Positions 333 to 2,440 of a DNA stretch of 2,754 nucleotides are shown here, piece after piece (positions within the stretch are counted from its first letter, which is position 1; each line of letters begins with the position of its first letter). The position numbers and the translations under genes were made by a program. This stretch comes from a virus. Lineage: Duplodnaviria; Heunggongvirae; Uroviricota; Caudoviricetes. The stretch spans positions 1-2,754 of the IMG/VR virus record IMGVR_UViG_2698536313_000022; one strand, given 5' to 3'. The notes beneath the pieces are model-generated. The model worked only from the letters and a program-made list of their open reading frames with translations, had not been told where the DNA came from and made no database searches.

Positions 333-512
333 TTAGCTTTTTTCGTTGCCTTCGCGTTCTTTATTAATTTTGACAAAATCGTTTTTACCACGCTCTCCAA
401 ATGCGTCTTTAGAGTCGTTGTATCCGCAATCGCAGCACACATAATCATCAGACCATCCACGCATTGTTTTTTCTTTTGCAATATTTCCAGAACCGCATTT
501 TGGACAAGACAT
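333..512 (-). CDS. Small stand-alone zinc-ribbon protein (59 aa; CPKC-x22-CCDC), function unknown
   Basis: ATG at 512..510 is preceded by GGAGG with a 7-nt spacer (minus strand ...TTTGGAGGTAGTGATATG); stop TAA at 335..333. Translation MSCPKCGSGNIAKEKTMRGWSDDYVCCDCGYNDSKDAFGERGKNDFVKINKEREGNEKS has two Cys pairs spaced as a zinc ribbon and a Lys/Glu-rich tail. The TTG start at 545 given by the ORF track has no Shine-Dalgarno and is probably not used. Hand count gives about 39% GC for this gene versus roughly 53-57% in sampled stretches of the neighbouring 609..1256 gene. Confidence 0.65.
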   Translation of the reverse strand: MSCPKCGSGNIAKEKTMRGWSDDYVCCDCGYNDSKDAFGERGKNDFVKINKEREGNEKS

Positions 513-608
513 ATCACTACCTCCAAAGCATGAGAGAGATGACAACGTAACATTGATTGGAGATTAACAATAGATTGCTGATGTAAAAGATATGTATAAG
601 CTTAGCTA

Positions 609-1256
609 TCAAAGGGGAGGCTCTGGTAGCGGCATCCAGTGTGACGGTTTCCACGACGCACCAGGAATTATCCACCCATCATTAGCGTCAGGATGCCCCG
701 GGATGTAAGTCGCCCATTTCATTCGCCAGTCACCTTTCCTGTCAAACTCCCTGGCAACAAGAACGGCTGTTTTGGTATCCGGCATTCGCTCACTACAGCT
801 TATCCAACCATCAGGAGTTACCGGAGAGTTGCCGGGTTCTTTAATGTGCAAGCGAGGCTCACCATCTTTTGGCTCAGGCCACTGGCGCTCCATGTTGATC
901 TTCAATTTATCTTCCATAGCAACGTTAATTTCAGCATCGCTGATGCCAGCACGGCGCTGTGCATCCCACAACAGAAACTGCATATCAGCCCACTCGCTAA
1001 GATCGTCTGGTTCGGCTGCGGCTTCCAGTGCCTCTTTTGAGAGATGTTTCAGCGGACCAATGGGGCCAACGCAGCCAAATGTGGAGTCAGACCATTTGGC
1101 ATGCTCGTGGCGAATCTGTTCGCGTTCCAGTGATGCCAGCGCAATTCGTGCCAGTTCTTCCGCTTCTTCTGCTGGCAGTACAACGTTGCTACCCGGTCCG
1201 TATGTTTCGCGCCACTGCTGGATTGTCAGCAGGCGTTCTTTGGTAATAGTGGTCAT
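609..1256 (-). CDS. Phage DUF550 (dATP/dGTP pyrophosphohydrolase-like, MazG-type all-alpha NTP-PPase) / DUF551 fusion protein (215 aa)
   Basis: ATG at 1256..1254 lies 2 nt after the upstream gene's TAG (minus strand TAGCTATG), with AAGGTG 6 nt upstream. The N-terminal about 130 aa are acidic and helical (EEAEELARIALASLEREQ..., LSEWADMQFLLWDAQRRAGISDAEINVAMEDKLKINMERQ), consistent with prophage DUF550 proteins. The C-terminal about 70 aa (DGWISCSERMPDTKTAVLV...WMPLPEPP) match the DUF551 motif pattern I recall from enterobacterial prophages. Assignment is by pattern recognition, not a computed alignment. Confidence 0.75.
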   Translation of the reverse strand: MTTITKERLLTIQQWRETYGPGSNVVLPAEEAEELARIALASLEREQIRHEHAKWSDSTFGCVGPIGPLKHLSKEALEAAAEPDDLSEWADMQFLLWDAQRRAGISDAEINVAMEDKLKINMERQWPEPKDGEPRLHIKEPGNSPVTPDGWISCSERMPDTKTAVLVAREFDRKGDWRMKWATYIPGHPDANDGWIIPGASWKPSHWMPLPEPPL

Positions 1257-1258
1257 AG

Positions 1259-1450
1259 CTATTTCACCTTAATCTCAACATTTCGCAGCTTTAGCTCTAC
1301 TGGCAGGTCTGACTTTCCGGTTAATGCTAATGCGAGATTTTCTGGAGTAATGAGAGCAGTTATTGTTTTCCCCCTCGCCAGACGAATAATCATTCGTATC
1401 TCGCAATCGTCACATGCTCCCGGTCGAACAATTGAGATTTGTCCGTTCAT
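1259..1450 (-). CDS. Hypothetical small protein (63 aa), no family recognised
   Basis: ATG at 1450..1448 is preceded by a near-consensus Shine-Dalgarno (minus strand AAAGGAGAGTGAGATG, 6-nt spacer) that overlaps the last codons and TGA stop of the upstream Ead-like gene (TGA-G-ATG). Stop TAG at 1261..1259 is 2 nt before the next start. Translation MNGQISIVRPGACDDCEIRMIIRLARGKTITALITPENLALALTGKSDLPVELKLRNVEIKVK. The longer 117-aa version in the ORF track would overlap the Ead gene out of frame and lacks an RBS. Confidence 0.6.
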   Translation of the reverse strand: MNGQISIVRPGACDDCEIRMIIRLARGKTITALITPENLALALTGKSDLPVELKLRNVEIKVK

Positions 1451-1451
1451 C

Positions 1452-2222
1452 TCACTCTCCTTTGATGCGAATGCCAGCGGCGCGCTCGGCTTCACTTTGT
1501 TCCCAAAACCACTTGTGAAGCGCCATAAGCTTTTCGTCAATCGGTGCATATTTGCGATTAAAGTAGGCCTGAGCATCTTTCTCAGATTCGTCCGGTAATT
1601 CGCCAGGGCCAAACAGTGTGTTATAAATCCATGCTAGTCCGCTCTTAGCGTCGCCAGTTGCCTGCCATTCGATAATGGCAGCCTGCATGACCAGAATGTT
1701 TTTCCCGATTAACAGGTCCAGTTCTTTGTACCGGTTGCGGATGTATGCATTCTCGCTTTGTAATTTTGCGTTGCGCTTTTCTGAGGCTTCAAGTAACGCC
1801 TGCTTATCGCGTAGCGCTTCTTCCAGTTCAGCAACATGGCATTCGCTATCAATAAGGTTGTTCTCTGCTGCTTCAAGCTCAACACGCAGCTTCCCTACTG
1901 TTAGCGCAATATCCTCGTTCTCCTGGTCACGGCGTTTGATGTATTGCTGGTTTCTTTCCTGTTCATCCAGCAGTGCCAGCACGGTAGCCGGGTTAGCCTC
2001 TGCTATGAATTCAGCGTTTGCATAAGCCTGAGCATCTGATTCAATCAGGCAGTTAACATGACATTCCGCAATCACGCCACCGGGTTCTCCTTTCCATTTT
2101 TGGCAAACAAAAACTCCTGTTAAATTGCCGTGCTGGTTAACAGATGTATGCCCTACGATGTAGCTTCCTTTAGTTGCTTTCTCTGCCTTTTCACGCAGTG
2201 CCTGATAATTAATTTCGCTCAC
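1452..2222 (-). CDS. Ead/Ea22-like family phage protein (256 aa) with central coiled coil
   Basis: GTG start at 2222..2220 overlaps the upstream TGA by 4 nt (GTGA), with AGAGG 6 nt upstream. The N-terminal MSEINYQALREKAEKAT... and the ...ANPATVLALLDEQE... segment resemble conserved Ead/Ea22-like regions. A strongly heptad-like segment follows (LRVELEAAENNLIDSECHVAELEEALRDKQALLEASEKRNAKLQSENAYIRNRYKELDLL), then a distinct C-terminal region. There is no in-frame ATG until about residue 186, so the GTG start is favoured. Confidence 0.75.
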   Translation of the reverse strand: MSEINYQALREKAEKATKGSYIVGHTSVNQHGNLTGVFVCQKWKGEPGGVIAECHVNCLIESDAQAYANAEFIAEANPATVLALLDEQERNQQYIKRRDQENEDIALTVGKLRVELEAAENNLIDSECHVAELEEALRDKQALLEASEKRNAKLQSENAYIRNRYKELDLLIGKNILVMQAAIIEWQATGDAKSGLAWIYNTLFGPGELPDESEKDAQAYFNRKYAPIDEKLMALHKWFWEQSEAERAAGIRIKGE

Positions 2223-2440
2223 TTCGAACCTCTCTGTTTACTGATAAGCTCCAGATCTTGCTGGCAACTGGCACAAGTCCGACAACCCTGAACGGCCAGT
2301 CGTCTTCGTTCATCTATCGGATCGCCACACTCACAACAATGAGTGGCAGATATAGCCTGGTGGTTCAGGCGGCGCATTTTTATTGCTGTGTTGCGCTGTA
2401 ATTCTTCAATTTCTGATGCTGAATCAATTATGTCTGCCAT
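2219..2440 (-). CDS. TraR/DksA-family C4-type zinc-finger protein (73 aa)
   Basis: ATG at 2440..2438, stop TGA at 2221..2219. Translation ...ATHCCECGDPIDERRRLAVQGCRTCASCQ... aligns by eye with the F-plasmid TraR motif CEACGNPIPEARRKIFPGVTLCVECQ (CxxC-x17-CxxC plus the conserved G-P-I-x-E-x-R-R). The Shine-Dalgarno is weak or atypical (AGGGA about 14 nt upstream), so the exact start is less certain than the family call. Confidence 0.8.
   Translation of the reverse strand: MADIIDSASEIEELQRNTAIKMRRLNHQAISATHCCECGDPIDERRRLAVQGCRTCASCQQDLELISKQRGSK

Follow-up and report, generated by a model that had tools for sequence, protein, structure and literature searches.

This report concerns X, a gene of 63 amino acids (aa) in a 2,754-nucleotide (nt) stretch of DNA from a virus of the Caudoviricetes (IMG/VR virus record IMGVR_UViG_2698536313_000022, positions 1 to 2,754), the whole of which is called the window. 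All of the window genes lie on the minus strand, and X is packed between an Ead/Ea22-like gene upstream and a gene for a DUF550-DUF551 protein downstream. An earlier note, made from the letters of the window, had taken X for an orphan whose tight junctions suggested co-expression and stoichiometric coupling with both neighbours. As a result of the analysis described here, X was found to belong to a catalogued phage family and to have interchangeable neighbours, and its product is better explained as an autonomous accessory protein than as a partner subunit.

X and its junctions

The following features make up X and its two borders.

1259..1450, minus strand: X, 63-aa coding sequence, ATG 1450-1448, stop TAG 1261-1259; member of PHROG 1222; protein MNGQISIVRPGACDDCEIRMIIRLARGKTITALITPENLALALTGKSDLPVELKLRNVEIKVK
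1457..1462, minus strand: AAGGAG, the Shine-Dalgarno sequence of X, 6 nt before the ATG and within the last codons of the upstream gene (I-K-G-E-stop)
1451..1454, minus strand: upstream junction of X, with the Ead/Ea22 TGA at 1454-1452, a single G at 1451 and then the ATG from 1450
1254..1270, minus strand: downstream junction of X, with AAGGTG at 1270-1265, TAG at 1261-1259, CT at 1258-1257 and the next ATG at 1256-1254

The layout given in the earlier note, namely AAGGAG with a 6-nt spacer, TGA-G-ATG and TAG-CT-ATG, is thus present in every part. The spacer of X (AGTGAG) includes the TGA of the upstream gene, and AAGGTG, inside the last codons of X, is the Shine-Dalgarno sequence of the next gene. 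The predicted pairing of the X site with the 3' end of 16S rRNA amounts to -8.7 kcal/mol, which ranks second among the gene starts of the window, behind the zinc-ribbon gene starting at ATG 512 (GGAGGT, -10.6 kcal/mol), and the site was therefore rightly called one of the best. The TGA-G-ATG spacing is a termination-reinitiation distance, and the geometry is that of a translationally coupled operon gene, with the upstream stop a few nucleotides from the start and the Shine-Dalgarno sequence inside the upstream gene. Such close packing is the norm of this operon and no peculiarity of X; the TraR/DksA and Ead genes, for example, share a 4-nt overlap (GTGA at 2222-2219).

The region of the Shine-Dalgarno sequence and start codon folds into a weak predicted hairpin that does not differ significantly from shuffled sequences (z -1.3), and no significant mRNA structure that would hide the ribosome-binding site of X was found. 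Rfam searches and promoter and terminator scans returned nothing at the X open reading frame (ORF).

Family membership and distribution

X matched PHROG 1222 over its full length, residues 1-63 aligning with positions 1-63 of the 63-position profile (expectation value, E, 1.1e-40; 138 bits). It differs from this family in nothing and is a plain member of it. PHROG 1222 is a phage family of unknown function, without a Pfam or NCBIfam model and without a structure, and X itself hit 0 families of Pfam and NCBIfam at E up to 0.1. When 33 diverse relatives of X were scanned, they gave just weak, motif-level matches to MDMPI_C (6 members, best E 6.5e-4). The earlier remark that no family is recognised is thus borne out in the sense that no characterised family was matched in Pfam, NCBIfam or PADLOC.

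A word-indexed search returned at least 95 clusters at 90% identity, all labelled 'hypothetical', and an exhaustive profile search among 1.84 billion proteins returned 78 representatives at 50% identity. Of 5426 complete E. coli genomes, 716 (13%) contain the DNA of X, at 800 places in all, where it is annotated as a hypothetical protein; a 100% identical copy is carried by E. coli O39:NM F8704-2 (WP_001014291.1). The word orphan therefore does not apply to this full-length PHROG 1222 member, whose family is already catalogued as one of unknown function.

Among phages, tblastn found X in 231 records from at least 6 lineages. The temperate carriers include Shiga toxin (Stx) 1a and Stx2a converting phages, BP-4795, JLK-2012, O104:H4-type phages, HK633 and Salmonella phages. 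Further copies were found in virulent Dhillonvirus siphophages (65-70% identity), in a Vequintavirinae myophage (81%), in Guelphvirus/Veterinaerplatzvirus (about 39%) and in Erwinia phage 49 (35%). In HK633, gp30 belongs to the family of X and occupies the same place, between the Ead/Ea22 and DUF551 genes; its RefSeq note records a resemblance to the HK620 hypothetical protein HK620p06. The BP-4795 homologue is named PBV4795_ORF6 in a note of the ACG-M12 record.

Searching the literature for its accession and locus names turned up no paper that names X. Published work on the exo-xis region is based on lambda, Phi24B and 933W. X is absent from lambda and Phi24B, and the phenotypes published for the region therefore do not include X; 933W was not among the phages checked. 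In Phi24B, the standard model phage for exo-xis (L089, HM208303, 2830-3953), a gene for a 301-aa DUF550+DUF551 protein comes immediately after the TraR-like gene, with neither an Ead-type gene nor X.

A 67-aa variant of X was seen in four loci (L028, L035, L038 and L051; 4001-4204 or equivalent), with identical residues 1-62 and then another tail. A different gene follows with an 8-nt overlap, encoding 266 aa in three of these loci and a 57-aa version in L051, and the mosaic joint falls inside the last codons of X.

Evidence that X is a coding gene

By size alone X does not rise above chance, the window holding 34 ORFs of at least 30 aa. The case for a real gene comes from conservation with purifying selection and from the full-length family match, and not from ORF length. 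Compared with the copy in an enterobacterial prophage (L087), X shows 68% nucleotide identity, with proportions of synonymous and nonsynonymous differences (pS and pN) of 0.88 and 0.14; compared with the Dhillonvirus copy (L002), it shows 62% nucleotide identity, with a pS of 0.84 and a pN of 0.22. The synonymous sites are saturated in both of these diverged pairs. Among 38 close variants, the changes are mostly synonymous, and the ratio of nonsynonymous to synonymous substitution rates (dN/dS) lies mostly at 0.06-0.3. The frame, the length and the N-terminus of X are retained in homologues down to 35% identity. With this synonymous excess and the conserved frame and length, X reads as a genuine protein-coding gene under purifying selection. 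The earlier note had named the absence of synonymous-site constraint as an outcome that would speak against the gene; constraint was found, with a pS of 0.84-0.88 against a pN of 0.14-0.22.

The same conservation could in principle be that of the DNA, with the stretch acting as a homology 'linker' when modules are shuffled and the ORF being incidental. This would suit the lambdoid loci, in which X has 95-100% nucleotide identity and the mosaic joints fall exactly at its borders. However, the amino acids are kept where the DNA is only 62-68% identical, with saturated synonymous sites and a pN of 0.14-0.22, the frame and length are retained down to 35% identity, and a confident fold is predicted from co-variation. 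The purifying-selection comparison essentially refutes the linker, and we attach scarcely any credence to it.

Database calls of 77 or 78 aa and a TTG-started ORF of 117 aa are X extended upstream into the Ead gene. These longer starts were rejected, as neither the family alignment nor the conservation supports them.

Predicted protein

The product of X is predicted to be a domain of about 7 kDa, with a four-stranded antiparallel sheet and one helix. Two AlphaFold runs agree on a single domain with strands at residues 4-8, 18-25, 28-34 and 52-56 and the helix at 36-43; the run with 49 close homologues gave a mean predicted local distance difference test score (pLDDT) of 82.7, and the run with 33 diverse homologues gave a pLDDT of 90.3 and a predicted template modelling score (pTM) of 0.71. 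Foldseek against viral models returned family members only, and the model had no significant fold neighbour and no similarity to known DNA-binding domains.

The conserved polar set comprises S6, R9, R23, G27-K28-T29, T44-G45-x-S47 and R56-N57, and the positions conserved family-wide are I7, R9, G27, T44, G45, S47 and R56. The family motifs are S-I-x-R, G-K-T-I-T, P-E-x-[FL]-A-L-A-[LI]-T-G-x-S-[DE]-x-P and R-N. The window protein contains no aromatic residues. With an average of about 0 (range -2 to +3), the net charge of the family speaks against generic binding of nucleic acids. The two cysteines of the window protein, C13 and C16, lack conservation among family members, and the conserved CxxC pairs of a zinc-binding domain were thus not found.

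The hairpin motif G-K-T-I-T...P-E leads to matches that would make X a minimal ubiquitin-like, or beta-grasp, domain, distantly related to ubiquitin or to the Listeria-Bacteroides (InlB B-repeat) domains. Through this motif the family profile matches polyubiquitin chains with E down to 1e-16 and multi-repeat Flg_new proteins with E down to 7e-18. Polyubiquitin, the sole sequence-profile match in the PDB, was rejected as repeat summation over the G-K-T-I-T hairpin, a single ubiquitin not being significant. The Listeria-Bacteroides repeat (Flg_new, PF09479) was rejected as well, since a lone repeat reaches 4-11 bits, significance arising when 4-18 of them are added up, and X is without a Pfam match. 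Neither a significant single-domain sequence match nor a fold match to ubiquitin-like or beta-grasp proteins was obtained, and we regard the relationship as very improbable.

Several relatives of X are parts of longer proteins. In natural fusions, X is joined, at either end, to a CxxC...CxxC zinc ribbon (P0100, P0126, P0112, P0130 and P0104). P0100 (L090/L091, 5001-5315) occurs on 6 contigs in a RecT-YqaJ...integrase early region, and its ribbon resembles the zinc-ribbon protein of the window (BLASTP E 0.002). The C-terminal extensions of other fused relatives (P0105, P0113, P0114, P0120, P0133 and others) contain no Pfam domain and give no functional hint. P0119 is a hybrid in which a methyltransferase N-terminus is joined to the C-terminal half of X, which probably explains a weak match to PHROG 11564, 'DNA methyltransferase'.

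Neighbours in lambdoid loci

The neighbourhood of X was compared in 80 viral and 3 genomic loci that were fetched, together with annotated phage regions; the lambdoid counts are drawn from up to 82 loci. Across the 82 lambdoid loci X is 95-100% identical, and the junctions are uniform, with TGA, 1 nt and ATG upstream and TAG, 1-2 nt and ATG downstream. The upstream genes fall into 26 mosaic types of 102-416 aa, most of them with an Ead/Ea22 N-terminus, and the downstream genes into 36 mosaic types of 57-473 aa. Ungapped homology to the window ends 0-20 nt upstream of the X start in 51 of the 82 loci and 0-10 nt past the X stop in 59. Because these mosaic breaks lie at its borders while X itself is nearly invariant, X is a discrete unit: together with its own Shine-Dalgarno sequence, it forms an autonomous cassette bounded by mosaic joints, with interchangeable neighbours.

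Both of the flanking genes are extreme mosaics with constant ends (L006-L086). The upstream proteins end in ...GIRIKGE or NIGIKGE, and the downstream proteins open with MTTITKER... or MNTLTKEW..., share a junction motif of the ARIALASLE type and mostly close in DUF551 (...HWMPLPEPP). Some modules occur on either side of X; in L079, the upstream gene starts with a 'downstream-type' leader.

These constant ends bear on the possibility that X is a partner subunit, made in fixed proportion with the Ead/Ea22-like protein, the DUF550-DUF551 protein or both, and acting in a complex with them. Regardless of which gene lies upstream, a tail of the IKGE, IKGA or VKGK kind precedes X in 80 of 81 lambdoid loci, an MTTITKE-like leader opens the downstream gene in 78 of 82, and the DUF551 motif is present in 65 of 82. 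The gaps of 1 and 2 nt and the embedded Shine-Dalgarno sites also fit a subunit, as do a divergent relative that adjoins a weak Ead_Ea22 gene in another arrangement and the Ead_Ea22-DUF551 fusion of Ea22 variant 2 of Stx phages (PMC10834534). Against this, the hypervariable flanks (26 and 36 types, 57-473 aa) show no co-variation with the near-invariant X, the DUF550 pyrophosphohydrolase module is found on the downstream gene in only 4 of 82 loci, Dhillonvirus, Guelphvirus, Erwinia phage 49 and other prophages have X but neither of these neighbours, and the spacing is equally tight with unrelated neighbours and between other operon genes. Neither obligate co-occurrence nor co-inheritance with Ead/Ea22 or DUF550-DUF551 was observed, and a partner subunit is accordingly a rather remote prospect.

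The earlier note had asked whether X and the DUF550/DUF551 gene recur as an adjacent pair in other prophages; in the lambdoid loci the DUF550 module proved rare and the DUF551 motif common. Stoichiometric coupling with both neighbours is not supported, given the variety of types around X and its other neighbours elsewhere. Co-expression is very likely, given the strong Shine-Dalgarno sequence and the near-zero gaps, so that this part of the proposal is supported while the partnership is not.

Neighbours outside lambdoids and dispensability

Outside the lambdoids, X always lies in early replication and recombination regions. In Dhillonvirus Bas83 the order is DNA polymerase, X and VRR-NUC; in Erwinia phage 49 X comes after DnaB; in Guelphvirus ACG-M12 X is followed by RecE-RecT-SSB; and in other prophages X is downstream of RecT/YqaJ/Rad52/GamL. 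The spacing is also tight in these settings, with gaps of 2-4 nt and a 4-nt overlap.

The Dhillonvirus genomes provide a clean case of presence and absence. In Bas83 (L002) X occupies 3001-3192, whereas in HK1 (L100, 3792) the polymerase gene is directly followed by VRR-NUC, without X, and the two polymerases are 97% identical. About 56 records have X, against 157 with that Dhillonvirus polymerase. Since HK1 lacks X and the records with X are fewer than those with the polymerase, X is accessory and dispensable in virulent Dhillonvirus.

The constant company of DNA-metabolism genes (polymerase/VRR-NUC, DnaB, RecE-RecT-SSB and RecT/YqaJ/Rad52/GamL) would agree with a replication or recombination accessory, that is, a small DNA- or enzyme-binder that aids or regulates the adjacent nuclease, polymerase or helicase. 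The conserved Arg, Lys, Thr and Ser residues and the zinc-ribbon fusions point the same way. The absence of X beside a nearly identical polymerase in HK1 speaks against such a role, however, as do the near-zero family charge and the lack of aromatic residues, the change of the adjacent enzyme between lineages and the lack of fold similarity to known DNA-binding domains. We consider this role unlikely, if less so than the partner subunit.

A link between X and Lar-type or other zinc-ribbon genes was also considered, the fusions (P0100 and others) and the ribbons close by having made it attractive. In Dhillonvirus, however, the gene annotated 'Lar-like' is without a Pfam match and is found in HK1 too, where X is missing, and among the lambdoid loci fetched the zinc ribbon of the window recurs in only 4; as that gene persists without X and the window ribbon is rare, the link was set aside and kept as a weak lead only.

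Operon setting in the window

The other genes of the operon in the window are as follows.

2219..2440, minus strand: TraR/DksA zinc-finger gene of the same operon, of the TraR/DksA family, as lambda orf73 is described; gene order in PMC8614690
1452..2222, minus strand: upstream neighbour of X, 256-aa mosaic Ead/Ea22-like protein (PF13935, E 3.7e-36); its GTG start overlaps the TraR/DksA stop by 4 nt
609..1256, minus strand: downstream neighbour of X, 215-aa mosaic protein with a leader (MTTITKER...ARIALASLE), a DUF550 dATP/dGTP pyrophosphohydrolase and DUF551 (PF04447, E 2.3e-41; PF04448, E 2.5e-21)
333..512, minus strand: small gene for a zinc-ribbon protein in this operon, probably starting at ATG 512 behind GGAGGT; weakly Lar-like

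F8704-2 has the gene order N, cIII, kil, gam, bet, exo, DUF1317, DUF1382, a hypothetical gene, TraR/DksA, Ead/Ea22, X, the DUF551 protein, ..., xis and int, and X lies within the exo-xis portion of its pL early-left operon. Terminator-like hairpins with T-runs at 2518-2500 and 269-250 (minus strand) bracket the block of TraR/DksA, Ead, X, DUF550/551 and zinc-ribbon genes; they are presumably read through under N antitermination.

Several observations were made on the other window genes. Residues 145-243 of the Ead/Ea22-like protein match the PADLOC 'DpdH' model PDLC02890 (E 1.4e-36); either this Ead module has a relative in a Dpd-island protein, or a prophage passenger gene was the basis of the PADLOC model. 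The ORFs at 314-553 and 333-545 (minus strand) overlap in different frames. The zinc-ribbon frame is backed by PHROG 2945 (E 5e-31) and by weak Lar/HVO_2753 matches; the RefSeq annotation of HK633 uses the other frame (gp28, 79 aa, MLRCH...), probably in error. The 73-aa TraR/DksA zinc finger (2219-2440) scored 55.6 bits against TIGR02419, just below the 59.7-bit cutoff. The 71-aa PHROG 303 protein at 2539-2754 is called 'cell division protein ZapA' in some phage records, and its Pfam ZapA match (E 0.014) is below threshold.

Proposed role of X

We lean, at slightly better than even chances, towards X as a self-contained accessory cassette of PHROG 1222, consisting of its own Shine-Dalgarno sequence and 63 codons, which is expressed early and binds a conserved target. 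As a gene of the pL operon, X would be expressed soon after infection or induction. Ribosomes most likely initiate at its own strong Shine-Dalgarno sequence, probably helped by others that terminate 1 nt upstream, and the tight junctions would be generic operon packing and no device for matching subunit amounts. As a small protein acting alone, it may bind or modulate either a target conserved among Enterobacterales hosts or the phage DNA-metabolism machinery. Such a function would be dispensable, of the host-takeover or counter-defence type, and would be spread from phage to phage by recombination at gene boundaries. The role of a binder or modulator that serves host takeover or counter-defence is itself speculative, and we rate it clearly below an even chance. 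The fuller proposal is more doubtful still: that the family represents an unrecognised small-protein fold and a mobile counter-defence or host-takeover factor, recombined between temperate lambdoid phages, including Stx phages, and the virulent Dhillonvirus, Vequintavirinae and Guelphvirus, with a target conserved in Enterobacterales.

Several points weigh against the self-contained binder. The binder or counter-defence role rests on size, position, mobility and dispensability, which suit many other roles, and X had 0 matches in PADLOC. In lambdoid phages X lies almost always between Ead-type and DUF551-type mosaic genes, and these two modules, Ead_Ea22 and DUF551, are fused in one protein in the Ea22 variant 2 of some Stx phages (PMC10834534). 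As a residual point, a looser pathway link of X to the Ead and DUF551 proteins may exist.

X is an ordinary conserved hypothetical small phage gene, one of very many, and joins the uncharacterised small early accessory genes known from exo-xis and replication regions of phages; nothing found here shows a new mechanism. The main value of the analysis is a negative one, in that it removes the orphan and the partner-subunit readings. Finding its role would supply a function for a protein that about one in eight complete E. coli genomes encode, with carriers that include Stx1 and Stx2 converting prophages, the O104:H4 outbreak phage type and candidate therapeutic virulent phages. Natural pairs such as Bas83, with X, and HK1, without it, make X directly testable, and together with its prevalence among Stx phages they render it easy to approach by experiment.

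Comparison with known systems

The nearest counterparts by setting are the small exo-xis proteins of lambda and Stx phages (Orf60a, Orf63, Orf61, Orf73, Ea8.5 and Orf55), with which X shares the pL early-left operon, the timing and the size class. The small exo-xis genes are dispensable accessory genes that, according to published accounts, influence the choice between lysis and lysogeny (PMC8614690, PMC10789677). X fills the variable slot after ea22 in which lambda has ea8.5 and orf55; unlike the small exo-xis genes, it also occurs in virulent phages. Lambda Orf55, from the same slot, is predicted to have three strands and one helix, and in this respect resembles X. It was nevertheless rejected as a relative, with an hhalign probability of 0.15% and no sequence relation.

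Zinc ribbons of the Lar/Ral type lie near X in some phages, as in Erwinia phage 49, where the second gene downstream encodes a true Lar (PF14354, E 1.8e-10); unlike these ribbons, X has no conserved cysteines. The small phage-encoded inhibitors T7 Gp2 and phi29 p56 offer a functional analogy, based in part on PMC8614690: like the predicted X product, they are early, stand-alone proteins of about 60 aa that combine a sheet with one helix.
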